Shown here: positions 15,550-62,611 of the stretch, one piece after another
How positions within the stretch are numbered: position 1 is the stretch's first letter
Layout of the letters: each line of letters opens with the position of its first letter
Assembly: GCA_016195265.1 (NCBI GenBank)
Contig: JACPZW010000003.1
Coordinates: forward strand, 67,279-131,278
DNA: 64,000 bases
Source: Acidobacteriota bacterium
GTDB lineage: Bacteria > Acidobacteriota > Vicinamibacteria > Vicinamibacterales > CAVVIG01
Direction of reading: 5' to 3'
Notes under the pieces: model-generated
Databases searched by the model: none
What the model saw: the letters and a program-made list of their open reading frames with translations, nothing else
Told to the model about the DNA's origin: nothing
Translations under genes and position numbers: made by a program

Positions 15550-16341
15550 ATGCGTTCTTACATTCTTGCGTTTCTGCACTGCCTGATCGCCGTGTCGGTT
15601 CTGGCGCAGACGTCCTCGACCATCCCCGCGCCGCCGGACGTCGCGGCGCCGCCCGCCGACGCGACGAAATTGGCGTCGGGTCTGGCGACGAAAGTCATCA
15701 AAACCGGCGCCGGGAAGGATCGGCCCGCCAAGGACGACGTCGTCACCGTGCATTACACCGGCTGGAAAACCGATGGGGCGATGTTCGACAGCTCGGTCGC
15801 GCGCAAGACGCCGTCGAGCTTTGCCGTCGGCCGCGTGATCGCGGGATTCAGCGAAGGCCTGCAGCTGATGACGATCGGCGAAACGCGGCGCCTGTGGATT
15901 CCGGAGTCGCTCGCGTACAAGGGACAGCGCGAGCCGAAAGGCATGCTCGTCTTCGACGTCGAGTTGCTCGGCATCCCGAGCCGCGCGCCGGCGGACGTGA
16001 AGTCGCCGCCGGCCGACGCGATCAAGACGGCGAGCGGCCTCGTCTACAAGGTCCTGCAGCCCGGCATCAACGCGAAGCATCCGCGCGCGACGAGCCAGGT
16101 CACCGTGCATTACACCGGCTGGACGATGGACGGGAAGATGTTCGACAGTTCGGTCGTGCAGGGACGTCCGGCGACGTTTTCCCTGGACGGCGTGATCGCC
16201 GGCTGGACCGAAGGCCTGCAGTTGATGGCCGAGGGCGGAAAGACACGCTTCTGGATCCCGGCGAAGCTCGCGTACGAAGGACAGCCGAGCCGGCCTCAGG
16301 GCATGCTCGTCTTCGACGTCGAGCTGATCAAGATCGAATAG
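15550..16341 (+). CDS. FKBP-type peptidyl-prolyl cis-trans isomerase with two FKBP domains, secreted
   Basis: 263-aa ORF with a signal peptide and two copies of VTVHYTGW..DG..FDSS...G.IAG..EGLQLM..G...R.WIP..LAY. Confidence 0.85.
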   Translation: MRSYILAFLHCLIAVSVLAQTSSTIPAPPDVAAPPADATKLASGLATKVIKTGAGKDRPAKDDVVTVHYTGWKTDGAMFDSSVARKTPSSFAVGRVIAGFSEGLQLMTIGETRRLWIPESLAYKGQREPKGMLVFDVELLGIPSRAPADVKSPPADAIKTASGLVYKVLQPGINAKHPRATSQVTVHYTGWTMDGKMFDSSVVQGRPATFSLDGVIAGWTEGLQLMAEGGKTRFWIPAKLAYEGQPSRPQGMLVFDVELIKIE

Positions 16342-19108
16342 CGCGCGCCCCGCCCGGCCTGCCGGGTCCGCCGGCCCGGGCCGCTCCACCCGCGACGCCC
16401 GCTCTGCCCGCGCCTTCGGCGATTCTCCGAATCGCGCGCTGGAAACGATCGGCGAGCGCGCGTCGCGTGTCTTCCGGCACGGGCCCGATGCGCGACCAGC
16501 TCGCCTGCGTCTGACGGACGTCTTCCTCCGCGGCGCGCCAGCGGCTGCCATCGTCCACCCGGCCGCCGATCGTGTTCGCGGCCAGCGCTTCCTTCAGCAT
16601 TGCCGCGAGACGATTGGTCGGCGACAGCGCGGCGTCGTCTTTCGACGCGCCGATCGGACCGGCGAGCGACGTTGCGAGATCTTCCATCCGCAGTACGAGC
16701 GTTTCCATCCGTTTGCGGTTCGAGTCGGGATCGAGGTCGGTGCCGCTGAACGCCGACGGCCAGCGCTTGATGACGCCGGCGAAGGCCGCGATGTAGCGCT
16801 GATCGAGCGCCATCGCGTGATCGCGATCGACGCCCCGGGCCGCGATCTCGCTCTGCCAGCGTCCGCGTAGCGCGCGCACTTGCGCCACGAGATCGGCGGG
16901 CGGCTCGACGGCGGTGGCCGGCGCCGCGGAATCAGTCGCTGGTGGCTCAGAATCGGTGGCCGTCGTTTCCGCATCCGCGGCGGGTGGCTGGTGGCTGGTG
17001 GCCGCGAGCGCCTCGAGCTCGGCGCAGATCGCTTCGCGCGCCGCGACGCGTGCGCCGAGCGCGATGTCGTGGCGCTGGACGTAGCGCGAGAAGAACTGGT
17101 CGCACGCGCCGCGGAAGCGCTGCCACAGCGGCTCCGATCGGCTCTTCTTGACCGGACCGATCGTCTTCCACTCGGCCTGCAGACGCTTGATCTCGTTGGC
17201 GGCCGCGTCCCACTCGGTCGAGTTCACGAGGGCCTCGACCTTCACGCACAGCGCTTCCTTCTTCGCGAGGTTCTCCGCCCAGACCGACTTGCGCTGCGCG
17301 AGATCCTCGTGGCGGCGCGAGAAGAAACGATCGCACGGGACGCGGAAGCGCTCCCAGATCGCCTTTTCCTGCCCGCGCGTCACCGCGCCGATGGTCTTCC
17401 ATTCGGCCTGGAGCTTCTTGATTTCGTCGGCGGTCTCGATCCACTTCGTCGAGTCCGCCAGCGCCTCCGCGCGCTCGCACAGCGCGATCTTCTTCGCGAG
17501 GTTCGCGGCGCGCGCTTCGGCCTGCGCCGCGAAGTGCGCCTCGCACCGCGCCCAGACTTCGTCGTGCGCGGCCTTGAAGCGCTTCCACAGCGCCTCGCCC
17601 TGCGCGCGCGGCACGTCGGCCGCCTGGCGCCACTGCTCCTGCAGCGTCCGTACGAACTTCGCGGCCTCCTCCGGATCCTCGAGCCCTTTGAGCGCCTCCA
17701 TCTTTTCGCAGAGCTGTTCCTGGATCCCGACGTTGGCCCAGCGCTGCCAGTCGGCGACGTCGCGCAGCTCCTGCACCCTGGGCGTGAGCGCCGCGAGCAG
17801 CGCCTTGAGCCGGCGGAGCATGTCCTCGTAGTCGCGTTTGGAGGGCAGCTGCGGCATCGCGCCGAGCGCGGCCCGCAGGTCCTTGATCGCACGTTCGCCG
17901 GCCTTGAGGGAGAGATCGGCGCGCGTGGTGAGCGGCTCGACGCGCGTCACCAGCTGCTGCAGCCGGACGAGCGCGTCGCGCCGCGCGCGCTGATCGGCTT
18001 CATACGCCGCGCTGTCGCGCGTCGTGAACGCTTCTTCGACCGTTGTGTAGCGCGCCACGAGCGCCGGGTCGCCGGCGGTCGCGCCGTGCAGGTCGTGCCA
18101 TTCCTTGCGGATGACCGTGAACACGCGGCGCGCTGCCGCCAGATCCTCGAGCTGCGCGATGCGCGCCGCTTCGTCGGCCAGCTCGGCGAGCCTGGCGCGG
18201 ACGCGCTCGGCTTCCTTCTGCGCGAGCGCCGCGGCCGCGTCCTGTTTCGCGCGATCGGCCGCCGCCTGCGCCTCACGGCGGTGCGCCGCCCCCGCCTCTT
18301 CACGCGCGCGCGCCTCTTCGACGTGACGCGCGGCTTCCTCACGTGCCCGGGCACGCTCGGCATCCTCGCGGGCGATCCGTTCGAGCTCGGCCGGATCGGG
18401 AGGCTCCGGCGGCGGCGCCGCCGCCGCCGCCGCATCGGCGGCCGCCTGCGCGGTCCGTTCGTCGATCTCGCGCGCCAGCGCGCGCGCCCGCCTCGCGGCG
18501 CTCTTGTTCTTCGCGCGCGTGGCGATCTGCTCGAGCTCAGCGCGGTCCGTTATCCGCTCGACGGCGGCCAGCGTCGGATCCTTGAAGTCGCTGTTCAGCG
18601 CGACGCCCAGAATCTCGCCGTGATCCCGCAACGCCTCGAACGCGGCGCGGCGCACGGCGTCGTGATCGGCGTGGCGCGCGAGCGATCCGAGCGCGTGCGC
18701 GTCGCCGATCGACGCGAGCGCGCGGACCGCCGTCGCTTCCCGCGGCGCGGTCCTCGCGACGAACACGAGCGCCCTGGCGTCGGGCAACGCGGCCAGGGCG
18801 TCGACCGCCGCCGCGCTCTCCGGTTCGCCTACGCCTTCGAACGCCTCGAGCGCCAGGTCGCGCAGCATCACCACCGCATGCGCACGCACGCCCTCGTCTG
18901 CATCGTCACGGGCGACGCCCGCCAGCGCCGGCGGGACCAGCAGCTTCGCGACCGCCGCGCGCCGTACCTTGGGATCCGCGTCCTCGCGGGCGACTTCCGT
19001 CAGCAGCTCGCGCTCTTCGAGCGGAAGCTCCTGGACGAACGCCAGACGCACGGCGGCATCGGGATGTTTATGACCGGGGTGGGCGCGAAATCGATCGAGG
19101 AGTGCCAT
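16328..19108 (-). CDS. DUF349 repeat protein with N-terminal HEAT-like repeats
   Basis: 926-aa ORF with repeated W(K/E)RF(K/R)...D.F(F)SR(R/Y) motifs separated by W.....LQ.EWK..G segments, as in DUF349. Confidence 0.6.
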   Translation of the reverse strand: MALLDRFRAHPGHKHPDAAVRLAFVQELPLEERELLTEVAREDADPKVRRAAVAKLLVPPALAGVARDDADEGVRAHAVVMLRDLALEAFEGVGEPESAAAVDALAALPDARALVFVARTAPREATAVRALASIGDAHALGSLARHADHDAVRRAAFEALRDHGEILGVALNSDFKDPTLAAVERITDRAELEQIATRAKNKSAARRARALAREIDERTAQAAADAAAAAAPPPEPPDPAELERIAREDAERARAREEAARHVEEARAREEAGAAHRREAQAAADRAKQDAAAALAQKEAERVRARLAELADEAARIAQLEDLAAARRVFTVIRKEWHDLHGATAGDPALVARYTTVEEAFTTRDSAAYEADQRARRDALVRLQQLVTRVEPLTTRADLSLKAGERAIKDLRAALGAMPQLPSKRDYEDMLRRLKALLAALTPRVQELRDVADWQRWANVGIQEQLCEKMEALKGLEDPEEAAKFVRTLQEQWRQAADVPRAQGEALWKRFKAAHDEVWARCEAHFAAQAEARAANLAKKIALCERAEALADSTKWIETADEIKKLQAEWKTIGAVTRGQEKAIWERFRVPCDRFFSRRHEDLAQRKSVWAENLAKKEALCVKVEALVNSTEWDAAANEIKRLQAEWKTIGPVKKSRSEPLWQRFRGACDQFFSRYVQRHDIALGARVAAREAICAELEALAATSHQPPAADAETTATDSEPPATDSAAPATAVEPPADLVAQVRALRGRWQSEIAARGVDRDHAMALDQRYIAAFAGVIKRWPSAFSGTDLDPDSNRKRMETLVLRMEDLATSLAGPIGASKDDAALSPTNRLAAMLKEALAANTIGGRVDDGSRWRAAEEDVRQTQASWSRIGPVPEDTRRALADRFQRAIRRIAEGAGRAGVAGGAARAGGPGRPGGARAIRS
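16939..17003. repeat. GGTGGCY heptamer words inside the DUF349 coding sequence, including 3 tandem units (21 nt, in frame) at 16983-17003
   Basis: GGTGGCT GGTGGCT GGTGGCC is read on the plus strand and translated on the minus strand as ATSHQPP. Confidence 0.55.
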
Positions 19109-19141: not shown

Positions 19142-19678
19142 TCAGCTTGTGAGTGCAGTCAGCCGCGCGACCATGTCGCCGCCGTGGGATCCGGCGCTGA
19201 CCGACTTGTCAATGTCCAGGATGCGGCCGTCCGCACCGATATAGAACGTCCACCGCGACGCATAGCCGCTCGGCGCCAGGACGCCGTACGCCCGCGCCAC
19301 GTCCTTGGTCGAGTCGCTCAGAATCGGATAGTCGATCCCGAGTGACGCCGCGAACTTTGTGTTCGCTTCCGTCGAGTCCACGCTGGCCGCGAACACTTTC
19401 ACGCCCAGCGTTCGAAACGCATCGCCGCTCGATCCGAGCGACCGGCATTCCACCGTTCAACCGCCGGTGAAGGCCTTCGGAAACCACGCGATCGCCACCA
19501 CGTGGCCGGCAAGATCGCGGAGGCGATACGTCCGGCCGTCGGACGCCGGCAGCGAAAAATCCGGCGCCGCGTCGCCCGCCTTCAGCTCGACGGCGGACCC
19601 GCCGCGTTGCATCACCACGTTGATGATTCCTACCGCCATCGCGGCGACCGTCGTCGCGATGGTCCGCAGCCGAACCAT
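19142..19678 (-). CDS. BCP/PrxQ-type peroxiredoxin with in-frame TGA (candidate selenocysteine) at the peroxidatic position
   Basis: ORFs 19457..19723 and 19142..19453 share one frame and are separated only by TGA (19457-19459) plus one codon. The joined sequence ...VAIAWFPKAFTGG[TGA]TVECRSLGSSGDAFRTLGVKVFAAS... aligns with E. coli Bcp [19 protein letters not shown]. The likely start is Met at 19678 (MVRLRTIATTVAAMAVGI, signal-like). Confidence 0.6.
19424..19459 (-). promoter_or_regulatory. candidate bacterial SECIS: UGA followed 14 nt later by an 8-bp GC-rich hairpin
   Basis: mRNA: UGA ACGGUGGAAUGCCG GUCGCUCG-GAU-CGAGCGGC. The stem has 7 Watson-Crick pairs plus one G.U. Confidence 0.4.
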
Positions 19679-19838
19679 TATTTCCGGCACGCCCGACACG
19701 CCCGGCACGTCCGCGCCAGCCACCAGCCGAATCGTGCCATTCTAGTGATGGAGCCGGTGTATTCAAGGAGCCCTCGGTACAGCTTTTTTTCTCAGGCTTC
19801 CCTGATTCTCCAATTCTGCGGATCGCGCGATACCAGAC

Positions 19839-20474
19839 GTGACATTTGACGCCGTTCTCAGTCAGTTGGAGTCATCTCTCGCGCGGCCGCTGCCGGGCGC
19901 GGCGGCACAGGCGCGCCTCGCGCCCCAGCTGCGCCGCCAATGGCCGCAGAATTTCGACCCCGCGCGAATTCGACCCGCGGCGGGCCTATTACTGGTTTTC
20001 CCCGTGGACCGCCGCGCGCACATCGTGCTGACCGTCCGCGCCGACGCGTTGCGCCACGGCGGCCAGGTGTCGCTGCCCGGCGGCGTCATCGAGCCAGGTG
20101 AGACGTTCGCGGAGGCGGCGCTGCGAGAAGCGCACGAAGAAGTCGGCGTGCATCCGCACGAGATCCGAATCCTCGGTCCGCTCACGCCGCTCGACATCCC
20201 GGTCAGCGGATTCCGGCTGCATCCGGTCGTCGCCGCGCGCGCGACGCGGCCAGCGTTCGTGCCCGCCCACGGCGAGGTCGCGCGAATCCTCGAGGTGCCG
20301 GTGGAAACGCTGCTCGATCCGGCGAATCTGGCGCCCGTCGAGCGCCATCGCATGGGCGCGACGCTGCGCGTGCCGGCCTTTCACGCCGCCGGCGTGGAAA
20401 TCTGGGGCGCCACGGCGATGGTGCTCGCGGAATTTCTCGCGCTGCTCGGCTGGCCTGACGCGTCGGGCGACTGA
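19839..20474 (+). CDS. Nudix hydrolase, CoA pyrophosphatase-like
   Basis: 211-aa ORF with Nudix box GGVIEPGETFAEAALREAHEEVGV and an upstream LTVRADALRHGGQVSLPGG segment typical of NudL-type CoA pyrophosphatases. Confidence 0.7.
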   Translation: MTFDAVLSQLESSLARPLPGAAAQARLAPQLRRQWPQNFDPARIRPAAGLLLVFPVDRRAHIVLTVRADALRHGGQVSLPGGVIEPGETFAEAALREAHEEVGVHPHEIRILGPLTPLDIPVSGFRLHPVVAARATRPAFVPAHGEVARILEVPVETLLDPANLAPVERHRMGATLRVPAFHAAGVEIWGATAMVLAEFLALLGWPDASGD

Positions 20475-20676: not shown

Positions 20677-22851
20677 ATGGGTTCTGCGGTGCTCGGCAAG
20701 GCGATCAGCGCGATTCGCGACTGGTCGATTTCGGAAGCGTCCACCACGTCCGGGTCGCAGGCCGCTGAAGTGTTCGGCAGCCTGGTGTTCAACGACCAAG
20801 TGCAACAGGCCCGTCTCCCGAAGGGTGTCTACCAGGCGCTCCGGCGCACGATGACGCAGGGCGAAGCCCTGGATGTATCCGCGGCCGACGCGATCGCGAA
20901 GGCGATGAAGGAGTGGGCGGTCGAGCACGGCGCGACGCACTACACGCACTGGTTCCAGCCGCTCACCGGCATCACGGCCGAGAAGCACGACTCGTTTCTC
21001 TCGCCGACCGGCGACGGCAAGGCCGTCGCGGAGTTCTCCGGCAAGGAACTGATCCGCGGCGAACCGGACGCCTCGAGCTTCCCGTCGGGCGGCATGCGCT
21101 CCACCTTCGAAGCGCGCGGCTACACGGCGTGGGATCCGACGAGCCCGCCCTGGCTGCTCTACAGCGGCGGCGCGGTGACGCTCGTCATCCCGACGGCGTT
21201 CGTGAGCTGGACCGGCGAGGCGCTCGACAAGAAGACGCCGCTCCTCCGCTCGATGGAGGCGCTGTCGAAGCAGGCCGTGCGTGTGCTGAAGCTCTTCGGC
21301 TCGTCGGCTGAGCGCGTCGTGACGACGTGCGGCCCCGAGCAGGAGTATTTCCTGATCGACCGCTACTTCTTCCTGGCGCGGCCCGATCTCATCAACGCCG
21401 GCCGCACGCTCTTCGGCGCGAAGCCGCCGAAGGGCCAGGAGCTCGAGGATCAATACTTCGGCGCCATTCCGGATCGCGTGATGGCGTTCATGTCCGAAGT
21501 GGAGTCCGAACTGTACAAAGTCGGCGTGCCGGTGAAAACGCGACACAACGAGGTCGCGCCGAGCCAGTACGAGATCGCGCCGGTGTTCGAGAACGCCAAC
21601 GTCGCCACCGATCACCAGATGATGACGATGGAGACGATGCGGCGGACGGCGCCGAAGTACGGCCTCGCGTGCCTGATGCACGAGAAGCCGTTCGCGGGCG
21701 TCAACGGATCGGGCAAGCATCTCAACTGGTCGATCAGCGACAACGAGGGGCACAACCTGCTGTCGCCGGGCGCGAACCCGCACGACAACATGCAGTTCCT
21801 CGTGTTCTGCACGGCGGTCGTGCGCGCCGTGAATAAGTGGCAGGGATTGTTGCGCGCGGCGATCGCGAGCGCGGGCAACGACCACCGGCTGGGCGCGAAC
21901 GAGGCGCCGCCGGCGATCATCTCGATCTTCCTCGGCGACATGCTCACCGACATCTTCGAGCAGATCGAGAAGGGCGGCGCGCGATCGACCAAGCACGGCG
22001 GCGAGCTGGACACCGGCGTCCTGGTGCTGCCGAAGCTGCCGCGCGACGCGGGCGACCGCAACCGCACCAGCCCGTTCGCGTTCACGGGCAACAAGTTCGA
22101 GTTCCGCGCGGTGTCCTCGAATCAGAGCATCGCGTACCCGAACATCGCGCTGAATATCGCCGTCACCGAGTCGCTCGACGACATCGCGGGCGAGCTCGAG
22201 AAGGCCGTCAAGGGCGGCAAGTCGCTCGACAAGGCGGTCGCCGAGCTGCTGCCGAAGCTGATCAAGGAGAACAAGCGGATCATCTTCAACGGCAACAACT
22301 ACTCGAAGGAATGGGAGAAGGAAGCCGGCAAGCGCGGCCTCCTGAACCTGAAGAACACCGTCGAGGCGCTGCCGCAGATGATCTCGAAGGAGGTCATCGG
22401 GCTCTTCGAGAAGTACAAGGTGCTCAACGGACGCGAAGTGCACGCGCGCTGCGAGATCATGGTCGAGACCTACAACAAGACCGTGAACGTCGAGGGCCAG
22501 CTGATGGTGCTGATGGCCGACCGCTACATCCTGCCGGCGGCGTTCGAATACCAGAAGCAGGTCGCGCAGAGCGTCTCGGCGGTGAAGAGCGCAGGCGGCA
22601 AGTCGGTCGAGGGCAGGAAGACGCTCGATGCGTTCACCAAGCTGACCGACGAGTTCAAGCGCCGCACCGACAAGCTGCGGCACGCGCTCGGGCACGAGGG
22701 CGCCTCGTCCGAAAAGCACGCGAAGCACTTCCGCGATGTCGTGGTGCCGGCAATGGCCTCGCTGCGCGACGCGGGCGACGAGCTCGAGCTGATGATCCCG
22801 CACGAGTCGTGGCCGCTGCCGACGTACCGGGAGATGCTGTTCATAAAGTGA
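20677..22851 (+). CDS. glnN: glutamine synthetase type III
   Basis: 724-aa ORF with the length and motifs of GSIII ([45 protein letters not shown]). AAGGAG RBS. Confidence 0.9.
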
Positions 22852-32951: not shown

Positions 32952-35879
32952 TTACGGAGCGCCAGGACCGTCCGTGCCCGGCATCAGCGGCCCGCCGGCG
33001 GTGGCGGCCGCGACGTAATCTTCCACGCGCTCGCGCGACAAGGTCAATGCCGTTCTCGCCATGGTCAACCAGTCCCCATCGTCGGACGGCCGGACCTCGT
33101 CGATGAAATCCTGCATGGCCGCGGCGAGGACGTTCTGGGTGAGCGCCGCCGGCAGCCCCATCTCGTTCAACGTCAGCGCAATGTGCAGGTTGACGTCGGC
33201 GACGGCCGACGCGGTCAGGCCGAGCTGCGGGCGTCCGGCGAGCGCGGGCCACTGGCCGGGCGGCGCCAGGCGCGAGCAGGCGCAGCCGCCCGCCGCCATC
33301 ATGACCATGCCCCACGCGTCGAAATCGCCAGGCCGGCCGCCGCCGAGCACGAGCAACTCGGTCAGCGTGAACATCGAGAGGGTCCGGCCCGGCTCGTGCG
33401 CGAGCGTCCAGGCCAGCGCCCGCCTGCGCGCGCGCTCCATGCCAATCTCGTCGGCGAGCGGATCGATCGCGGATGCCGCGGACGCCGCGAGCGCGCGCAC
33501 GCGGCCGCGGCCGCGCGTGACGGCGGCGACGATGGCGGCGCGGTCGGCGTCGCGGAGCGCGAACGGATTCATGAGCGACACGCTCGCGGCGAACACGTCG
33601 CGCTCGTTCGACGTGAGCCGCGGCGCCTCGAGCACGCGCTCGTAGTTGAGGCGGCGCAGCGCGAGCGGCGCGAGCGCGACGTCCAGGCCCAGCAGCGATC
33701 CCGTGACGTGCCACGGCACGTTGGGCGACACCTCCGCGCGCGGGACCGACCACATCGTCCGCTGGCGGTGGTCCGTGTCCTTGATGCCGAAGCCGAAGTC
33801 GTGGCGATGCGAGACGTCGCCCGCGAGAAGAATCGTCCCGTCGGGATCGCCCACGTAGGCGGCGTACACGAGCGAGAGCAGCGACTGCGCGAGAAGATCG
33901 CTCGAAAGTTCGAGCAGCGGCTCGCCCGCGCGCGACGCGCGCTTGAGATCCTTGCCGGCGACGGCCTTCGTCAGCTCGTCGATCGACTTCTGCACCGTGT
34001 CGCGCGGCGGCGGGGGCGGCGCGACGCCGGCAGGCGCGTCCTCCTCGTCCTCCTGGCGCGAGCGCTGCGCGATGTTGGCGGCGTGGCGCCGCAGCCGGAC
34101 CGTCGTGCTCTGGATCTCGTCGAGCGAAAGCTTCTGGCCCGCGAGCGCCGACCCCGCGGCGGCGACGTCCAGCGCGATGTCGAGCGGCGGCGTCTGCTGT
34201 TTTTCGCGCACGCGCTGCATCCGCTGCCGCTCGGCCGCCCCGAGGTCGAGCCGGTACGGCTGACCTTCCCACGTGACGCGCGCCGCCTTCCCGCCCTCGC
34301 CGGATGCCGGCCCGGACATCGCCGCGATGACCGTGGACTCCAGGTCGTCGCCCGCGGGCAGCGCGGCGATCAGATCGTCGCGCAGCCACGCCGCGAGCGC
34401 ACCCGCGCCGTAACGCCCGTCCTCGAACGGCAGTGCCGCGAGATGCGCGATCAGCGTCTGCGCCCGCGCCGGGGCCAGCGCGTGCGCGCGGACCATCCGC
34501 GCGACGAGCGCGAGCGAGCCCTGCAGCTGCGCCTGGGCCAGGAAGCCGCGGCGGCCGTCCACCACCGACAGCCGGCTCGCATGGCGGACGGCCGCGGCGT
34601 ACACCACCGGCGACGTCACCCCGATGCGCTCGATCGTGAACAGCAGCGCGCGAAAGCGCGGCAGCGCCCGCAGGGCCGTGAACGCGTCACCCCGCACCTC
34701 CGCGCGCTTCGCACCCTCCGCGCCTTCCGCACCGTCAGTACCTTTCCAGGGCGCGGCGAACACGCGCTGGCCGAACGCGAGTTGATCGAGCCGGTCGCCG
34801 CGCAGGCGCACGTCGGCGGCGCCGAGCGTCTCAAGGAGCCAGGCGGCGTCGATCGGATCCTCCTCCGCCCCGCGCAACTGCTTCGCGCCGTCGTCCGGCA
34901 AATCGGTTCCCGCGTACACGCGCGACCAGAAGCCGCGGCTGCCCGGCGACGCGGCCACGCCGGTCTCGTCCACCTGGATGCGGGCGAGCACCATCGAGAG
35001 ATCGTAGGCGGCGCGGCCGAACGGCTGCGTGCGCAGGTGCCAGTCTTTGAACGCATCGATGCCGGTCGTCGCGAGCGTCTTGAAGCGGTCGACGCGTGTC
35101 TGCGCGTTCGGCATCCACAGGCCGAGCGTGAAGGCGCGGTGCGGCGCGTCGAGGTGACCGATCGTGTCGTAGAGGTACGCGAGGCGGCCCTCGTCGAGCT
35201 CGAAGATCTGGGCCACGAACCGATCGACGCGCGTGACCTTCTCGAGCGTCACCGCCTCCCACAGCGGCACGGCCGCATCGCCTCCGGGCGGAACGACGCG
35301 ATTCGCCTCGATGCGCAAGGCGCTCGAGAACGCGGCGAACGCCGGCGCGGCGCGCTCGGCGAGGCGCGACAGAATCGCTTGGTGATCCGCCAGGTACGCC
35401 AGCGTGCCGTCGTCGAGAGCTATCAGCCCGTGGCATAGGAGCGTCGCCGTCCGGTCGCTCACGATCGCCATCACGAGCTCGTCGCGCGCGACACGGCGGT
35501 GGAAGATCGCGTCGCCCCAGACGTCCGCCGTCAGTGGAGCAGGCACGAGCTCCGTCAGCTTCGGGTCCAGCGTGACCACGGGCGGTCTGCCGCCGCGGGC
35601 GGGTTTCTGGCGCAGGCTCAGCAGGAACGCTTCGACGGCGGGCTTGCGGCCTTCCGGGTTGTCGTACACGAGGCGCGAGATCTCGGAGAGAAAGCGCCCG
35701 CGATCGGGAACGGGATCGACGCCGAGCGCGTGCGCGAATGCCGCGGTGCCGCCGGGAACCGGTACGTCGTCAGAAAGGGCGACCGCGGCGGTCAGCCGGA
35801 CCGAAAATGCCGCTACAATCGTGCACAGCATCAAGGCCGGCGCTCGCCTGGAGCGCTCGACCTTCTTGACGTTGCTCAC
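32952..35879 (-). CDS. large secreted hypothetical protein (~975 aa), first gene of an apparent operon with the two VWA genes
   Basis: GTG at 35879 within ORF 32952..36062, then KKVERSRRAPALMLCTIVAAFSVRLTAAVALS (signal-like). I recognise no domain. Coding is supported by length and GC3 bias. Confidence 0.6.
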   Translation of the reverse strand: MSNVKKVERSRRAPALMLCTIVAAFSVRLTAAVALSDDVPVPGGTAAFAHALGVDPVPDRGRFLSEISRLVYDNPEGRKPAVEAFLLSLRQKPARGGRPPVVTLDPKLTELVPAPLTADVWGDAIFHRRVARDELVMAIVSDRTATLLCHGLIALDDGTLAYLADHQAILSRLAERAAPAFAAFSSALRIEANRVVPPGGDAAVPLWEAVTLEKVTRVDRFVAQIFELDEGRLAYLYDTIGHLDAPHRAFTLGLWMPNAQTRVDRFKTLATTGIDAFKDWHLRTQPFGRAAYDLSMVLARIQVDETGVAASPGSRGFWSRVYAGTDLPDDGAKQLRGAEEDPIDAAWLLETLGAADVRLRGDRLDQLAFGQRVFAAPWKGTDGAEGAEGAKRAEVRGDAFTALRALPRFRALLFTIERIGVTSPVVYAAAVRHASRLSVVDGRRGFLAQAQLQGSLALVARMVRAHALAPARAQTLIAHLAALPFEDGRYGAGALAAWLRDDLIAALPAGDDLESTVIAAMSGPASGEGGKAARVTWEGQPYRLDLGAAERQRMQRVREKQQTPPLDIALDVAAAGSALAGQKLSLDEIQSTTVRLRRHAANIAQRSRQEDEEDAPAGVAPPPPPRDTVQKSIDELTKAVAGKDLKRASRAGEPLLELSSDLLAQSLLSLVYAAYVGDPDGTILLAGDVSHRHDFGFGIKDTDHRQRTMWSVPRAEVSPNVPWHVTGSLLGLDVALAPLALRRLNYERVLEAPRLTSNERDVFAASVSLMNPFALRDADRAAIVAAVTRGRGRVRALAASAASAIDPLADEIGMERARRRALAWTLAHEPGRTLSMFTLTELLVLGGGRPGDFDAWGMVMMAAGGCACSRLAPPGQWPALAGRPQLGLTASAVADVNLHIALTLNEMGLPAALTQNVLAAAMQDFIDEVRPSDDGDWLTMARTALTLSRERVEDYVAAATAGGPLMPGTDGPGAP

Positions 35880-35897
35880 AGAGCGCACATTATAGAC

Positions 35898-37823
35898 ATG
35901 GCCTCCACGAACTACACCGCCAAAGACATCACGGTTCTGGAAGGGCTCGAGCCCGTACGCAAGCGGCCCGGCATGTACATCGGTGGCGTCGGCTCCACCG
36001 GGCTCCATCATCTCGTTTGGGAAACACTGGACAACTCGGTCGACGAGGCGATGAACGGTCATGCTTCAAACATTTGGGTGACCCTTCACGCCGATGGATC
36101 GTCGATTACGATCGAGGACGACGGCCGCGGCATTCCGATCGACAAACACCCGGCGACGAAGAAAAGCGCGCTCGAGGTGATCTTCACCGTCCTGCACGCG
36201 GGCGGCAAGTTCGAGCACGGCAATTACAAGACCGCCGGCGGCCTCCACGGCGTCGGCGCGAGCGTCGTCAACGCGCTCTCGAAGGAGCTCGTCGCCACGG
36301 TCAAGCGCGACGGTGCCCAGTGGGAGATGCGCTTCAAGCAGGGCAAGCTGGTCAGCGGGCTGAAAAAGCTCGGGCCGGCGCGCGGCACCGGGACCACTGT
36401 GCACTTCAGGCCGGACGCCGCGATCTTTCCGAAGATCGAATTCGATCCCGCGATCATCAAGGAACGACTCGAGGTCGCCAGCTACCTGCACAAGGGCCTG
36501 AAGGTCTCGTTCGAGGACGAAACCGCGCCGCCCAAGGACCGCAAGGTCACCTTCGAGCACACCGAAGGGCTCGTCGACTATCTGAAGAAGATCGTCGCCG
36601 ACCGCGGCGCCAAGCCGGTGCACGAAGCGCCCTTCGTCCTCACGAAGGACGAAGGACTGCGGATCGATCTCGTCGTGCAGTGGACCGAGGCGACCGATGA
36701 GCACCTGCGATCGTACGTCAACGGCATTCCGACCGGATCCGGCGGCACGCACGAGACCGGCCTGCGCGGCGGACTGGGCAAGGCGGTGCGCAATTTCATC
36801 GAGACGCACAATCTCTCGCCGAAGGGCGTCACGCTGACGGCCGAGGACATCCGCGAAGGGATGACCGGCGTGCTCAGCGTCTTCGTGCAGGAGCCGCAGT
36901 TCCAGGGCCAGACGAAGGACCGGCTGAACAACCCCGAGCTCGTGTCCGCGGTGGACGGCGTCGTGCGTCCCACGCTCGAGCACTGGCTGAACCACAACAT
37001 CAGCGTTGCGGAGGCGATCGTCGCCCGGATCATTCTCGCGGCGCGCGCGCGCGAGGCGAGCCGGGCGGCGCAGGCCGAAGTGTCGCGCAAGAGCGCGACG
37101 TCATCGCGCCTGAATCTCCCAGGCAAGCTCAGCGACTGCACGAACTCCACGAGCGAAGGCAGCGAGCTGTTCGTCGTCGAAGGCGATTCGGCCGGCGGGT
37201 CGGCGAAGCAGGGCCGCGATCGCGCGCGGCAGGCGATTCTGCCGCTGCGCGGCAAGGTGCTGAACACCGAGAGCGCGTCGCTGGCGAAGGTGCTCGAGAA
37301 CAAGGAGCTCGCGGATCTGGTGACCGCGCTCGGGTGCGGGCTCGGGAACAACTTCGAGATCGAGAAGCTGCGCTACGGCAAGATCATCATCCTCGCCGAC
37401 GCGGACTCCGACGGCAACCACATCGCGACGCTGCTGCTGACGTTCATCTATCGCCATCTGCCGAAGCTGATCACGAACGGCAAGGTATATCTCGCGCAGC
37501 CGCCGCTCTACCGCATCGACATCGGCAAGGACACCTTCTGGGCGCTCGACGACGCGCAAAAAGAAGCCATCCTGAAGCAGCACTCGAAGAACGGGCACGG
37601 GCGATCGCCGGAGATCACGCGCTTCAAGGGCCTCGGCGAGATGATGCCCAAGGTGTTGTGGGAGACGACGCTCAACCCGCGCACGCGGCGGCTGCTGCGC
37701 GTGGAGATCACGGATCAAATCACGACCGATCGCGTGATCAACGAGCTGATGGGCAAGGATGCTTCCGCACGATTTCGCTTCATCATGGAAAGAGCCGATG
37801 AAGCCGATGAACTGGATGTCTAA
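35898..37823 (+). CDS. type IIA DNA topoisomerase subunit B (GyrB/ParE family)
   Basis: Met 134 of ORF 35499..37823. VLEGLEPVRKRPGMYIGG, LHAGGKF, GGLHGVGASVVNALS, the Toprim motifs EGDSAGGSAKQGRDR and IIILADADSDGNHI, and the C-terminal KGLGEM. Confidence 0.85.
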   Translation: MASTNYTAKDITVLEGLEPVRKRPGMYIGGVGSTGLHHLVWETLDNSVDEAMNGHASNIWVTLHADGSSITIEDDGRGIPIDKHPATKKSALEVIFTVLHAGGKFEHGNYKTAGGLHGVGASVVNALSKELVATVKRDGAQWEMRFKQGKLVSGLKKLGPARGTGTTVHFRPDAAIFPKIEFDPAIIKERLEVASYLHKGLKVSFEDETAPPKDRKVTFEHTEGLVDYLKKIVADRGAKPVHEAPFVLTKDEGLRIDLVVQWTEATDEHLRSYVNGIPTGSGGTHETGLRGGLGKAVRNFIETHNLSPKGVTLTAEDIREGMTGVLSVFVQEPQFQGQTKDRLNNPELVSAVDGVVRPTLEHWLNHNISVAEAIVARIILAARAREASRAAQAEVSRKSATSSRLNLPGKLSDCTNSTSEGSELFVVEGDSAGGSAKQGRDRARQAILPLRGKVLNTESASLAKVLENKELADLVTALGCGLGNNFEIEKLRYGKIIILADADSDGNHIATLLLTFIYRHLPKLITNGKVYLAQPPLYRIDIGKDTFWALDDAQKEAILKQHSKNGHGRSPEITRFKGLGEMMPKVLWETTLNPRTRRLLRVEITDQITTDRVINELMGKDASARFRFIMERADEADELDV

Positions 37824-39456: not shown

Positions 39457-40623
39457 ATGCCAGCGACCTCCACCACGTACGCGATTCCGCTGCACCGGCC
39501 GCCGTTCGAGGACGCTGACGCGCACGCGGTCGTCGCGGCGCTGAACGACGGACTGCTGACCGGCGACGGCGCGGCGAACCAGCGGCTCGCGCAGGCCGCG
39601 CAGCGGACGCTCGGCTGCCATCGCGCCTACGCCACGCCGTCGGGCACGCACGCGCTCGAGCTGATGATGCGCGCGCTGCCGCTCGCGCCCGGCGACGAAG
39701 TCATCTGCCCTTCGTTCACCTTCGTCTCCGTCGCCAATGCGATCATCCTCGCCGGCGGCACGCCGGTCTTCGCGGACATCGAAGCCGCGACGCTCAATCT
39801 CGATCCGGCGAGCGTGCAGCAGCGGCTCTCGCCGCGGACGCGCGCGATCGTCACCGGCCACTACGGCGGCATCGCGTTCGGGCTCGAGACGCTTGAGTCG
39901 CTCGCCTCGTCTCGCGGCATCGCGCTGCTCGAAGACGCCGCGCACGCGCTCGGCGGCACGTATCGCGGGCGCGCGCTCGGCACGTGGGGACGCGCGGCCG
40001 CGTTCTCGTTTCACGGCACGAAGAATCTCGTCGCGGGCGAAGGCGGATTGTTCGTCACGACCGACGCGGCGCTGGCCGCGCGCGCGGAGATCATCCGCGA
40101 GAAGGGCACGGACCGATCGCGCTTCCTCCGCGGCGACGTGGACCGCTACACGTGGCAGGCCGTCGGCAGCTCGTATCTGATGAGCGACGTTTTGGCGGCG
40201 CTCGTCCTCGCGCAGTGGGGCCGGATCGACGCCATCACGGCCGCGCGTCGCGAGCGATTCGATCGCTATCAGCAGGCATTGGCGCCGCTCGCCGCGGCGG
40301 GCCAGGTCACGCGCCCCATCGTCCCGGAGGGCTGCGAGCCCGCGTACCACGTCTACTTCGTGCTCGCCGACGCGAAAGCCACACGCGATCGCCTCGCGGC
40401 GTGGTTGCGCGAGCGAGGGATCGAAGCGTCGTCGCACTTCGTGCCGCTGCACCTCTCGCCGTACGCGACGAACACGCTCGGCACGCGGCCGGGCCTGTGC
40501 CCGATCACCGAGAGCGCCGCGGACCGGCTCGTCCGTCTGCCGCTCTACCCCGCGCTGTCACCGGCCGATCAGCAGACCGTGATCGACGCCGTGTCCGCGT
40601 TCTTCGGTCGATCGAGGACGTGA
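39457..40623 (+). CDS. DegT/DnrJ/EryC1/StrS-family sugar aminotransferase (WecE/ArnB-like)
   Basis: 388-aa ORF: GDEVICPSFTFVSVANAI, SFHGTKNLVAGEGG (PLP Lys), HFVPLHLSPY. Confidence 0.8.
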   Translation: MPATSTTYAIPLHRPPFEDADAHAVVAALNDGLLTGDGAANQRLAQAAQRTLGCHRAYATPSGTHALELMMRALPLAPGDEVICPSFTFVSVANAIILAGGTPVFADIEAATLNLDPASVQQRLSPRTRAIVTGHYGGIAFGLETLESLASSRGIALLEDAAHALGGTYRGRALGTWGRAAAFSFHGTKNLVAGEGGLFVTTDAALAARAEIIREKGTDRSRFLRGDVDRYTWQAVGSSYLMSDVLAALVLAQWGRIDAITAARRERFDRYQQALAPLAAAGQVTRPIVPEGCEPAYHVYFVLADAKATRDRLAAWLRERGIEASSHFVPLHLSPYATNTLGTRPGLCPITESAADRLVRLPLYPALSPADQQTVIDAVSAFFGRSRT

Positions 40624-42539
40624 CGCCCGCCGATCGGGAACCACGCCGCCAGCATCTGGATCTGTATCTGATCGGCGCGCTGCTGATCCTCGTGGCCGCG
40701 GCGCAGCACCGGTGGAACGAAGGCATCACGAGCGACGGCAGCCTGTACTTCGCGCATCTGCGCAGCCTGATCTTCGATCGCGATCTGCAGATCGGGCCCG
40801 AACTCGAGTTCCTGCATCTGCCGCCACGCCCGCATCACATTGTCCCGATCGGCCCGTCGATTCTCTGGGCGCCGCTCTATCTGCTCGTCGCGCTCGGCGA
40901 CCGGCTGGGATCGATCCTCGGCCTGTCGTCGCGCGCGACTGGCGTCGCGCTCGGCCTGACCCGCCCGTACCTGCGCGCCGCGTTCATCGGATCGTTCGCC
41001 GTGGCGTCAGCCGGCCTCGTCGCGCTTCACCTGCACGTGCGGCGGGAATTCGGCCCCGCGATCGCGCTGCTGACGTCGACGCTGACGCTCGTCGCGACGC
41101 CGCTCGTCTGGTACATCGTCTTCGAGCCGTCCATGACGCATGCGGCGTCGTTCGGGGTCGTCTCGCTCGCGCTCGTCGCGTCGGACCGCTGGCTGAGCGC
41201 GGGATCGCCGACGCGCGGCCAGGCGATCGCGATCGGCGCGCTGTTCGCGCTGGCGATCCTGGTCAGGCCCGAAGATGGATTGTTCCTGGTGTTTCCGGCG
41301 GCGTTGATCTTTCGACAAGCAGGCCGGGTCCTTCCGCCTTCGCACGCTTCGGCGGACCGCCGTAGCCTTGGCGGAGGCGGTTCGGACCCGGCTGATCAGG
41401 CTGGCGGGTCCAGAAGGACCCGCCCTACATCCGCTCCGCCCTATATGACCATCATCAACATGGCGATCGGCGCCGCGCCGCTCATCCTGATTCAGGCGGC
41501 GATGCTCTACTTCCTGTTCACGTCGAACGACTTCTCGCTTGCAGGCGGCGACGAAGGCTACCTGTCGCTCTTGTCCCCGCACCTGAGCGACGTGCTCTTT
41601 TCCTCGCGCCACGGCCTGCTGTCGTGGTCGCCGGTCGTCTGGGCGGGGCTGGCCGGCATCCTTATATATAGCCGCCGCAACCCGCGCTGGGCGTGGCCGG
41701 CGCTCTTCGTCTTTACGACGATGGTCTGGACCAACGGATCCGCGCACGACTGGGCCGGCGGCTGGGCATTCGGCGGACGCCGGTTCGTCAGCATCCTCGG
41801 CGCGCTGGCGCCGGGTCTGGCGTTTGTCGCGTGGAAGGCGCGTCGGCACGCGGTCACGCTGCTGGCGCCGGCGGCGGTGATCCTGGTCGTCTGGAACGTC
41901 ACGCTGATGGCGAAGTATCACGCCGGCGCGATTCCGCGTGACGAGACGATCAGCTGGGCGGATGTCCTTGGCCCGCGCCTCGGCGCCGTCGCGCGGCCGC
42001 CGTTGTTCTATCCGTTCTCCGTCCCCGCCAACGTCTGGTTCGCGTGGCGTGAAGGCCTGCCCGCCGCGCGGTACGATCTGCTCGGTTCCGAGCCGCTGCG
42101 GCAGGAGATGTATCTGCCGCTGAACGACTGGGGCGCACGCTTTCTGGACAATCCCGCGGACTGGGAGAACGGCAGCGCCGACGCGTTTGGCTCGCGTCAT
42201 TTCCTGCGCGCGGCGTCGGCCGCGATTCTCGTGCCGCTCGACGTCCCGGCCGCGTCCGCGTTCGCGCTCGACGTCGAGGCCCGCGCCGACGGTCCGGCGC
42301 GCGACGCCATGACATCGCTCGCCGTTTCACTGAACGGCCGGTCGATCGGCGACATCCCGATGCCGATCGGCGCGACGCCGCCGGCGCGAAAGGCGTTCGT
42401 GCTGCCGGCCGGAGCCCGGATCTGGCGGCGCGGCTACAACCGCGTTACCATTTCGCAGCCCTCAACCGTGCCGCCTTCCACCCAATTCCTCGTGTACGCG
42501 CTGCGCGTCGGTCCCGCGACCGCGGGCCAGGGGCGCTGA
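40620..42539 (+). CDS. polytopic membrane protein, GT-C-like (ArnT/PMT-type) candidate glycosyltransferase
   Basis: GTG 40620 overlaps the upstream stop (GTGA). About 12 predicted hydrophobic segments and a C-terminal soluble domain. The function is inferred from context only. Confidence 0.55.
   Translation: MTPADREPRRQHLDLYLIGALLILVAAAQHRWNEGITSDGSLYFAHLRSLIFDRDLQIGPELEFLHLPPRPHHIVPIGPSILWAPLYLLVALGDRLGSILGLSSRATGVALGLTRPYLRAAFIGSFAVASAGLVALHLHVRREFGPAIALLTSTLTLVATPLVWYIVFEPSMTHAASFGVVSLALVASDRWLSAGSPTRGQAIAIGALFALAILVRPEDGLFLVFPAALIFRQAGRVLPPSHASADRRSLGGGGSDPADQAGGSRRTRPTSAPPYMTIINMAIGAAPLILIQAAMLYFLFTSNDFSLAGGDEGYLSLLSPHLSDVLFSSRHGLLSWSPVVWAGLAGILIYSRRNPRWAWPALFVFTTMVWTNGSAHDWAGGWAFGGRRFVSILGALAPGLAFVAWKARRHAVTLLAPAAVILVVWNVTLMAKYHAGAIPRDETISWADVLGPRLGAVARPPLFYPFSVPANVWFAWREGLPAARYDLLGSEPLRQEMYLPLNDWGARFLDNPADWENGSADAFGSRHFLRAASAAILVPLDVPAASAFALDVEARADGPARDAMTSLAVSLNGRSIGDIPMPIGATPPARKAFVLPAGARIWRRGYNRVTISQPSTVPPSTQFLVYALRVGPATAGQGR
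41320..41429. repeat. REP-like pair inside the GT-C-like membrane protein gene
   Basis: GCAGGCCGGGTCCTT[47-nt nested hairpin insert]TTCGGACCCGGC, then T-GATCAGGCTG-GCGGGTCCAGAAGGACCCGCCCTAC. The second unit and its flank are near-identical to 5971-6003. Confidence 0.7.
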
Positions 42540-42544
42540 GCGCC

Positions 42545-43501
42545 GTGATTTCGATCGTCATCCCCGTCTTCAACAACGGCGCGGCGATGGTCCGCGAATG
42601 CCATGCCGCGCTCGGCGCGACGCTGGCGACGCTGTCCGAGCCCGCCGAGATCATCTTCGTGGACGATGGCAGCCGCGACGACACGCTGGAGGCGCTGAAA
42701 GCGATCCAGCGCGCGGATGGAAGAGTCCGCGTGCTCGAGTTCGCCGCCAACTTCGGTCAGCACGCGGCCTTCTCCGCCGGCTTCGACGCCGTCCGCGGCG
42801 ATGTCGTCGTGACGATGGACGTGGATCTGCAGGCGGATCCAGCGGACATCCCGCGGATGATCGCGCCGCTCAGAAACGGGTACGACCTGGTCAGCGGCGT
42901 CCGCACGAACCGCCGCGATCCCGCGATGCGGCGCCTCGCGTCGCGCGTGGTCACGAAGCTCGTGACATCTCTCACCGGGATGACCGCCGTCAAGCTCCGC
43001 GACGTCGGCTGTCCGTTCAACGCGTTCACGGCGGACGTGGCGAAGAGCTTGTCCGCCTTCGGCGAGCTGCGCCGCTTCCTGAAGCCGCTCGCCGTGCGGG
43101 TGGCGCGATCGGTGACGGAAGTCGAAGTCGTGCACCGGCAGCGGGCCGTGCATCATGTGCGGACGTCGTACTCGGGCACGCGGCTGCTGCGGCTGTTCAT
43201 GGATTTCTTCGTCAACAGCATCGGCGATCTGTTCGCGTGGCTGTTCGCGATCGCGTCCGCGGCGACCGCGCTCGGTGTGGTCGCGTTCGCCGTGCTTGCG
43301 GTGATGCACCTGACCGGAATGGTGCGCCTGCGCTACCCGATCGCGGCGATGGCGGGCACGGCCATCGCGGCGCTCGTCGCGCTTCTCGGCCTCATCGGCG
43401 ACTACACGCAGCGCATCTACCGCCAGAGCTCCGGCCGTCCGTTCTATCTCATCCGCCGCGTGCACGAAACGCCCGGCGCTCCAGACGCTCGTGGCCGCTA
43501 G
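42545..43501 (+). CDS. family 2 glycosyltransferase, polyprenyl-phosphate sugar transferase type (ArnC/GtrB/DPM1-like)
   Basis: 318-aa ORF: ISIVIPVFNN, IIFVDDGSRDDT, NFGQHAAFSAGF, VVTMDVDLQADP, and two C-terminal TM helices as in ArnC/GtrB. Confidence 0.8.
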   Translation: MISIVIPVFNNGAAMVRECHAALGATLATLSEPAEIIFVDDGSRDDTLEALKAIQRADGRVRVLEFAANFGQHAAFSAGFDAVRGDVVVTMDVDLQADPADIPRMIAPLRNGYDLVSGVRTNRRDPAMRRLASRVVTKLVTSLTGMTAVKLRDVGCPFNAFTADVAKSLSAFGELRRFLKPLAVRVARSVTEVEVVHRQRAVHHVRTSYSGTRLLRLFMDFFVNSIGDLFAWLFAIASAATALGVVAFAVLAVMHLTGMVRLRYPIAAMAGTAIAALVALLGLIGDYTQRIYRQSSGRPFYLIRRVHETPGAPDARGR

Positions 43502-44507
43502 CCTTCTTGGCGCGGACGCGCGCGCGACGCTCGATCCGCTGATCGACGCGTACGCCTACAAGCCGTACCGCAACTATCGAACATTGCCGCGCAAGAAGCA
43601 GAACGACGTCCTCCGCGCCGAGGTCCACGCCGCGCTCGACGCCGAGGGCGGTTTCGCCGTCATCAGCGCGCCTGGAAGCACTGGAAGCCCTGGAAGCCCT
43701 GGAAGCCCTGGAAGCATTGACGCGCCGCTCGCCGCCGCGATCGTCCGTCCGCTGCCGTGGGACAGCGCATTCTTCGATCTGAAGATGGCGAAGATGACGC
43801 ACGTGCTGCGCACGGACGAAGCACCGCGCGCGGACGTGACGTCGGTGATCGATCTCGCGCTGCGGCAGTGCCGCGAGCGTCGCATTCAGCACGTCGCCGT
43901 CCGCATCGACGCGGCGGACGCGGACGCGATCCAGGCGCTCGAGGCCGCCGGCTTCCGCATGGTGGACGCGCTGGCGACCTACATCTATCACCACAAGCGC
44001 GAGTCGCCGCCGCCGATCAAGGAGATGGGCGTGCTGCGGCTCTTCCGGCCGGAAGACACCGAACAGATCATCGCGATCACACGCGAGGCGTATCGCGGAT
44101 TCCAGGGCCGCTATCATCTCGACCCGCACCTCGACAAAGCCCGCGCGGACGAGCTGTACATCGAGTGGGCGCGCAAATGCTGCGCATTCGAGTGGGCGGA
44201 AGTCGTGATGGTCAACGAGAACGGCAAGGGCGAGCTGCACGGCTGGGCGAGCTACCGCCACATCGAGCCCGCGTCGACGGTCGGCGGCATTCCCATTCAA
44301 GGCGGCGGGCTCGGCGCGTGCCGGCGCGATACGCCCGGCGCGTACGCGGGCATCGTGCGCTTCGCCGCCGTCATGATTCACGGCGGCGGCGGCGTCACCG
44401 AGTGCCAGACGCAGCTCTTCAATTTCCCGACGATCCGCGTGTACGAGGCGATCGGCACGCAGTTCGTGCGCGCCGATTACACGCTCCACGCGTGGCTCGG
44501 CGCCTGA
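43491..44507 (+). CDS. WecD/RffC-like dTDP-4-amino-4,6-dideoxy-sugar N-acyltransferase (GNAT fold)
   Basis: PLPWDSAFFDLKMAKM resembles the E. coli WecD N-terminus (PLTWENAFFGV). The protein has two-domain length. GTG 43491 overlaps the GT2 stop. The N-terminal ~75 aa extension contains a 9-mer repeat. Confidence 0.55.
   Translation: MAASLLGADARATLDPLIDAYAYKPYRNYRTLPRKKQNDVLRAEVHAALDAEGGFAVISAPGSTGSPGSPGSPGSIDAPLAAAIVRPLPWDSAFFDLKMAKMTHVLRTDEAPRADVTSVIDLALRQCRERRIQHVAVRIDAADADAIQALEAAGFRMVDALATYIYHHKRESPPPIKEMGVLRLFRPEDTEQIIAITREAYRGFQGRYHLDPHLDKARADELYIEWARKCCAFEWAEVVMVNENGKGELHGWASYRHIEPASTVGGIPIQGGGLGACRRDTPGAYAGIVRFAAVMIHGGGGVTECQTQLFNFPTIRVYEAIGTQFVRADYTLHAWLGA
43672..43716. repeat. (CTGGAAGCM)x5 nonamer tandem repeat, in frame
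   Basis: CTGGAAGCA CTGGAAGCC x3 CTGGAAGCA, translated as PGSTGSPGSPGSPGS. Confidence 0.8.
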
Positions 44508-53496: not shown

Positions 53497-53521
53497 CTAC
53501 CTGTCACCTGCCTGTCACCTA
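53489..53521. repeat. (CCTGTCACCTR)x3 undecamer tandem repeat spanning a stop codon, the spacer and the next start codon
   Basis: On the coding (minus) strand it reads TAG GTGACAGG CAGGTGACAGG TAGGTGACAGG CAC.... Each unit carries AGGTGA (SD-like) and a GTG. Confidence 0.8.
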
Positions 53522-54691: not shown

Positions 54692-54723
54692 GATGAAGAG
54701 GCGCGGCGCGCGCCCCTCATCAT
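54690..54723. terminator. GC-rich imperfect hairpin between the FN3 lipoprotein gene and the aminotransferase start
   Basis: ATGATGAAGAGGCGCG GCG CGCGCCCCTCATCAT. On the minus strand the aminotransferase ATG lies in the 3' arm. There is no U-tract. Confidence 0.3.
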
Positions 54724-54755
54724 AGTGCGCGATCGGCCGGGACCGGAAGCTTCAG

Positions 54756-55955: not shown

Positions 55956-55997
55956 GCCGGTCAGCTCCCTCTGCCTGGATTCATCAAAGCCAACCGC

Positions 55998-57182: not shown

Positions 57183-57221
57183 GACTCCTCCTAGGAACGG
57201 CTCGCGCACGTCAGGCTGACG
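57103..57221. repeat. 119-bp exact direct repeat, copy 1 (5' UTR plus first 27 codons of lipoprotein paralog B)
   Basis: Identical by eye to 63757-63875. The identity stops abruptly on both sides. Confidence 0.8.
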
Positions 57222-57244
57222 AAAGTACTAAGCCGCGCGCGGTG

Positions 57245-62560: not shown

Positions 62561-62611
62561 GGAATCCTCTTTTGCTCCGAATTGGCGCGACCGCAAGAGC
62601 CTTCAAAATCC

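Follow-up and report, generated by a model that had tools for sequence, protein, structure and literature searches.

An in-frame UGA at the peroxidatic position of a BCP/PrxQ-like thiol peroxidase gene, followed by a conserved hairpin, very probably encodes selenocysteine in a Vicinamibacteria-like genome

Peroxiredoxins with selenocysteine (Sec) in a TxxU motif, known as 'Prx' and assigned to pfam00578, are an established family in the texts of bacterial selenoproteome surveys (PMC1794560, PMC2398784, PMC13188914), in agreement with the original prediction for the locus described here, which had stated that Prx-like selenoproteins exist in bacteria. The 2006 survey text describes five Cys-to-Sec events in Sec-peroxiredoxins and already reports selenoproteins in Acidobacteria (PMC1794560). 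Likewise, Sec-peroxiredoxins are given as being among the most abundant GOS selenoproteins, with 253 sequences (PMC2398784), and PrxU of Eubacterium acidaminophilum is cited as an experimentally shown Sec peroxiredoxin (Sohling et al. 2001, cited in PMC13188914). Our analysis of a 64-kb stretch of DNA (hereafter, the window) points to one more member of this long-known selenoprotein family: with a probability of roughly 0.9, the window contains the gene of a BCP/PrxQ-like thiol peroxidase with Sec as its predicted peroxidatic residue, encoded by an in-frame UGA together with a downstream hairpin.

The window gene shares with the surveyed Prx family its Pfam family, the position of Sec in PxxxTxxU (here T71-G-G-U74), a SECIS element right after the UGA, and the existence of many Cys homologs with repeated exchange of Cys and Sec. 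It differs in that neither the FPKAFTGG-U-T-x-E-C sub-family to which it belongs nor the Vicinamibacteria-type synteny described below is singled out in the survey texts. Sec would occupy the peroxidatic site both here and in PrxU, but the two proteins belong to different peroxiredoxin branches, and the PrxU equivalog (NCBIfam NF040737) was rejected for the window protein, whose score of 49.9 bits is far below the cut-off of 270. Their hosts also differ: PrxU is from a strictly anaerobic member of the Clostridia, and the window gene from a high-GC genome that resembles those of soil acidobacteria. The BCP equivalog (NF006960), although the best NCBIfam match, did not reach its cut-off either (72.5 versus 140 bits). 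Because the protein scores below both equivalog cut-offs, we assign it, by its sequence, to a BCP/PrxQ-like sub-family defined by FPKAFTGG-U/C-T-x-E-C. The best matches among solved structures are Cys-type BCP/PrxQ proteins (5epf, 5iph/5iiz and 3gkk; E about 1e-13), whose catalytic Pro, Thr, Cys and Arg line up with the Pro, Thr, predicted Sec and Arg of the window protein; unlike these, the window protein has a predicted Sec in place of Cys and a hydrophobic N-terminal extension of 30 residues.

Mechanical ORF listing returned two ORFs on the minus strand, one of 88 aa (19457..19723) that ends in ...AWFPKAFTGG and one of 103 aa (19142..19453) whose GTG start lies inside TVECRSLG... Both are in the same frame, and only a TGA and one Thr codon lie between them. 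Translation straight through this TGA, which is the sole interruption of the minus-strand frame from 19678 to 19142, reads ...HVVAIAWFPKAFTGG, the TGA, and then TVECRSLGSSGDAFRTLGVKVFAAS... The listing and the read-through translation thus bear out the original prediction that two same-frame ORFs are parted by a TGA, and its remark that ORF callers split such genes. With a Cys put at the TGA, the joined 178-residue product matches the Pfam AhpC-TSA family (PF00578) with 103.9 bits (cut-off of 26, E = 7.4e-30), over residues 35-153 and hence across the TGA; as such, it is absent from a collection of 5.8 billion proteins. The locus would best be annotated as one selenoprotein gene of 178 residues instead of as a pair of small ORFs; left to automatic callers, it will be split or cut short. 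Table 1 compiles the features of the locus. A search for promoter-like sites found one site, when 0.1 were expected.

Table 1. Predicted features of the peroxiredoxin locus and its neighbours, in window coordinates
Feature	Position	Strand	Details and basis
Predicted Sec peroxiredoxin CDS, BCP/PrxQ-like	19142..19678	minus	178 residues, Sec at residue 74; frame, PF00578 and alignment
Probable start codon ATG	19676-19678	minus	MVRLRT...; agrees with homolog N-termini
Stop codon TGA of the gene	19142-19144	minus	
Predicted Sec codon, in-frame UGA (U74, peroxidatic position)	19457-19459	minus	Frame, alignment, at least 240 other loci
Cys78 codon, candidate resolving cysteine (U-x3-C)	19445-19447	minus	Alignment
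Catalytic residues P67, T71, U74, R142	within 19142..19678	minus	Homolog alignment
Predicted SECIS hairpin, GUCGCUCG-GAU-CGAGCGGC	19424-19442	minus	8 pairs including one G-U, -11.3 kcal/mol
Hairpin 5' arm	19435-19442	minus	
Hairpin loop, GAU	19432-19434	minus	
Hairpin 3' arm	19424-19431	minus	
N-terminal hydrophobic segment, residues 6-23	19610..19663	minus	After Arg3 and Arg5; candidate signal peptide or membrane anchor
Promoter-like site, TTGAAT-16-TAGAAT	19739..19766	minus	About 60 nt upstream of the ATG; consensus match only
DUF349 protein gene	16328..19108	minus	33 nt downstream of the Prx gene; conserved neighbour
NUDIX gene	19839-20474	plus	Window neighbourhood
Type III glutamine synthetase (GSIII) gene	20677-22851	plus	Window neighbourhood

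More than 3000 homologs exist, and we aligned the 27 closest ones, which are 59-76% identical to the window protein. The TGA falls on a column that is Cys in 26 of them and Ser in the remaining one, within the invariant block WFPKAFTGG-C-T-x-E-C, so that in the alignment with Cys-containing orthologs the TGA takes the place of the peroxidatic Cys of the PxxxTxxC motif, as had been proposed. The motif reads P67-K-A-F-T71-G-G-U74 in the window protein, and P67, T71 and R142 are invariant in the 28 aligned sequences, with R142 aligning with an Arg of 5epf and 5iph. Likewise, Cys78 is invariant in the 27 close homologs, and 182 distinct sequences of the Sec type among the matches listed have it in the form T-x-[EQ]-C. 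The idea that a second Cys matches the resolving Cys region was upheld in part: there is a Cys four residues after the predicted Sec (U-x3-C), although in 5epf the second Cys falls one residue later in the alignment. A hydrophobic segment agrees with the anticipated signal-like N-terminus; residues 6-23 have a 15-residue Kyte-Doolittle mean of 1.99 and the segment is conserved in the homologs, with a comparable hydrophobic segment ahead of the Prx domain in 189 of 208 Sec-type loci among the matches listed. This conservation suggests, from sequence, that the enzyme is membrane-anchored or exported. The one homolog with Ser at the peroxidatic position, P0006, is close and full-length (FPKAFTGGS), and could be an inactive variant, an enzyme with a different chemistry or the product of a sequence error.

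We scanned public DNA with a back-translated motif requiring the TGA, TTYCCNAARGCNTTYACNGGNGGNTGAAC, for which about 0.03 chance matches are expected, and retrieved the FPKAFTGG-TGA-T pattern from at least 120 GTDB species-representative genomes and from at least 120 metagenome contigs. Among the matches listed, the genomes with the TGA form belong to Acidobacteriota (many of them Vicinamibacterales and Bryobacterales), Myxococcota, Planctomycetota, Gammaproteobacteria, Verrucomicrobiota, Chloroflexota, Actinomycetota and Bacillota. In 219 of the 240 matches listed, 80 or more codons follow the TGA without a stop and read as the remainder of a peroxiredoxin; those with fewer than 80 open codons are mostly run-offs at contig ends. 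Because the same in-frame TGA is found in at least 240 loci, with the frame open in 219 of those listed, a nonsense mutation does not explain it. Within the window, a scan for in-frame TGA candidates singled out 19457-19459 as the only TGA with a coding signature on both sides.

Some of the retrieved loci deviate from the common pattern. The post-TGA frames of L153, L171 and L196 have only 48, 25 and 12 codons, respectively, well inside their contigs, and might be true pseudogenes or assembly errors. Loci L016, L022, L066, L117, L124 and L228, as well as L008, L024 and L172, show an insertion after the Sec motif, about 130 residues downstream and with a GSGLDKFD-like sequence, or much longer downstream frames (216-423 codons), and these deviations suggest variant architectures or fusions. 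Additionally, two Sec-type copies (L071 and L075) occur at distant positions of a single genome, OZ253507.1 (Candidatus Marinacidobacterales).

The alternative that best survives is that a nonsense mutation or a sequencing error changed TGC or TGT to TGA in a Cys-peroxiredoxin, leaving a recent pseudogene or an artefact from which only a truncated N-terminal fragment would be made; we regard it as quite improbable. Such an origin would agree with the window protein having Cys forms as its nearest relatives by identity (73-76%), with the single base change that turns TGC into TGA, with a SECIS loop that lacks G[G/U], and with the Sec machinery not being seen in the 64-kb window. Indeed, ARAGORN found no tRNA in the window and no tRNA-Sec in 244 locus flanks, and Pfam scans found no SelA, SelB or SelD domains among 30 window ORFs; the ORFs scanned are chromosomal genes of an ordinary kind, such as those for aconitase, RecQ, IspG and topoisomerase subunits. 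Against a pseudogene or an error, the window gene has no frame disruption besides the TGA at 19457-19459, and GC3 is 0.82-0.84 both upstream and downstream of it. The post-TGA dN/dS between the window gene and eight relatives is 0.17-0.29, and its median of 0.21 corresponds to the family baseline, being indistinguishable from that of pairs without the window gene (median 0.19). Purifying selection on the post-TGA part is normal. Close orthologs that share the TGA were also checked as possible pseudogenes, and they carry no other disabling mutations.

Further evidence against a pseudogene comes from the perfect 8-bp hairpin that follows the UGA in the window, with arms as in Sec-type relatives. 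The original prediction placed an 8-bp hairpin with a GAU loop 14 nt past the UGA, at a spacing typical of bacterial SECIS elements, and both statements hold: the stem begins 14 nt and the loop 22 nt past the UGA. The published criteria for bacterial SECIS elements (bSECIS; PMC13188914) comprise a loop of 3-9 nt, a stem of 4-16 bp, a G in the first two loop positions, a distance of 16-37 nt from the UGA and a minimum free energy of -7.5 kcal/mol or lower. The window hairpin, which as in the bacterial model lies within the CDS, falls inside all four hard limits (loop of 3 nt, stem of 8 bp, spacing of 22 nt and -11.3 kcal/mol) and has G at loop position 1. It departs from the model in that its loop starts with GA instead of the usual GG or GU. 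This frequent, non-obligatory G[G|U] pattern is present in 204 of 215 sequences among the matches listed, the window being one of the 11 without it, and the loop opens with GG or GU in all 13 sub-family relatives among those matches. What sets the window loop apart is a synonymous Gly codon, GGA for GGG (19432-19434, minus strand). The GAU loop may lower the efficiency of Sec insertion in this gene, and of the caveats internal to the sequence it is the foremost.

Taken alone, the window hairpin is no more than would be expected by chance, with a single-sequence folding energy at z = -1.1 relative to shuffles, at 70% GC, and a scan of the window with Rfam matched no family. It is the comparative data that raise it above chance. 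Of 215 distinct sequences among the matches listed, 136 have their best simple hairpin at exactly 14 nt past the UGA and 177 have it at 13-16 nt, the usual ortholog hairpin having 7 bp and a CGUGA or CGUGC loop. Where the post-Sec peptides are unrelated, as in the sub-families with TREMQGYQ or TRELSAYR, stems of different sequence occupy this position, and their loops are GGC, GGAC or GGAU. To evaluate covariation, we aligned 150 U-T-x-[EQ]-C-type sequences without gaps and considered a named 7-bp helix, in which 94.6% of the cells are paired; sliding its 3' arm by 1-3 columns leaves 27-64% of them paired. Changes on both sides of a pair occur in 116 cells versus 26.8 in shuffles, and the covariation score is 0.396 versus 0.155; none of 500 shuffles reached either observed value. 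Compensatory types are seen at five of the seven pairs, and one pair, 24:30, is C-G 98 times and G-C 43 times, which links a synonymous Leu site with the choice between Glu and Asp. The sub-family of the window gene (14 sequences with the peptide SLG[STA]S[GD]) has instead an 8-bp stem and a triloop, and its basal pair is swapped from G-C to A-U in L105, L136 and L206.

The DUF349-Prx-NUDIX-GSIII neighbourhood of the window gene is present in at least nine Sec-type loci, including those in Vicinamibacterales and Acidobacteria gp6 MAGs (L094, L096 and L105), and also in Cys-type loci that we fetched via their proteins; Sec- and Cys-type loci that share this neighbourhood are therefore positional orthologs. 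Judging by these neighbours, a Vicinamibacteria-like acidobacterium is the most likely source of the window. In a rough NJ tree, whose sampling is biased, both forms are interleaved: the window pairs with the Cys form P0001, L227 with the Cys form P0032, and L189 with the Cys forms P0017/P0020. Owing to this sampling bias, we did not infer the direction of the Sec/Cys changes from the tree. That Sec-type positional orthologs are common in the syntenic clade also argues against a pseudogene or an error in the window, and so does the state of the hairpin in both forms. Sixteen of the 17 Sec forms of the clade keep all seven register pairs, with energies of -9.7 to -11.9 kcal/mol, versus four to six of the seven pairs and -0.9 to -9.1 kcal/mol in eight distinct Cys forms, none of which has an intact 8-bp stem. 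In its arms the window hairpin is identical to those of the Sec-type relatives; in L245, the Cys sister nearest to the window gene, the hairpin has been lost (-2.8 kcal/mol). The Cys forms L244 (1432-1488), L247 and L248, with the peptide SLG[ST]SG, keep seven of the eight pairs and have lost the basal one alone, with energies of -8.9 and -9.1 kcal/mol; this could be because the stem is partly dictated by the peptide, or because these are SECIS remnants of a recent conversion from Sec to Cys. Together, the in-frame TGA in at least 240 loci, the covarying hairpin and the syntenic Cys orthologs without an intact hairpin support the selenoprotein that had been predicted from the window.

The adjacent DUF349 gene is probably co-transcribed with the Prx gene, and no terminator-like site was found between the two. 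At the syntenic loci, a large DUF349 repeat protein always follows the Prx gene on the same strand and within tens of bases; we know of no functional link behind this conserved pairing.

Marginally less probable than a pseudogene or an error is that the UGA is read without selenium, either as Cys by the Sec machinery under selenium limitation or by a near-cognate tRNA, so that some or all of the product would be a sulfur enzyme. The free interchange of Sec and Cys forms in the clade, which shows that the site functions with either residue, favours this possibility, but the covarying SECIS indicates selection for SelB-dependent decoding, and general read-through is unlikely where TGA is the major ordinary stop. 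A reassigned genetic code was likewise rejected, because TGA is the commonest ordinary stop and ends 17 of the 32 window genes, this one included. Finally, that mechanical ORF calling yields exactly two ORFs could be taken to indicate two separate genes, for an 88-residue N-terminal peptide and for a 103-residue protein starting at GTG 19453, but this is hardly credible, given that neither half is a complete peroxiredoxin fold, the Pfam match to residues 35-153 spans the TGA, all Cys homologs are single proteins and the break falls at the catalytic residue itself.

Decoding of UGA-74 as Sec, which we favour, would proceed by the standard bacterial mechanism (PMC13188914), from which we infer that the hairpin 14 nt downstream recruits SelB with Sec-tRNA(Sec), so that the codon is not read as a stop. 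In the P67-x3-T71-x2-U74 / R142 site of the predicted enzyme, the selenolate would reduce peroxides and become a selenenic acid. By analogy with atypical 2-Cys peroxiredoxins, this selenenic acid would probably be resolved by Cys78, forming an intramolecular selenenylsulfide, and a thioredoxin-type reductant could then reduce the U74-Cys78 bond. Cys78, invariant and one helical turn from U74, is the obvious candidate partner for such a selenenylsulfide. The hydrophobic N-terminal segment would, in turn, anchor the enzyme in the membrane or direct its export.

A selenoprotein gene at this locus would imply that this Vicinamibacteria-like genome uses selenocysteine. A modest further value lies in the comparison with its relatives, which brings out a covarying SECIS in hundreds of Sec forms and the alternation of Sec and Cys at one syntenic locus. 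As a tentative extension, for which we would give somewhat less than even odds, FPKAFTGG-U-T-x-E-C could define a very widespread sub-family of selenoproteins, most of them membrane-anchored or exported, in aerobic bacteria from soils and the sea (Acidobacteriota, Planctomycetota, Gammaproteobacteria and Verrucomicrobiota), with many Sec/Cys switches at one Vicinamibacteria locus and SECIS remnants in some of the Cys genes. If this were true, the sub-family would offer a natural series for examining when selenium pays off in a peroxidase.

Elsewhere in the window, four ORFs (32952-36062, minus; 39984-42539, plus; 43491-44507, plus; and 47199-49907, minus) have a strong coding signature and no Pfam match at 1e-5, and three of them are large (851-1036 aa). 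The minus strand of 52024-62596 contains a run of proteins with fn3/BNR domains followed by an ORF of 1783 residues (57245-62596), an arrangement that may correspond to a cluster for cell-surface or secreted proteins.
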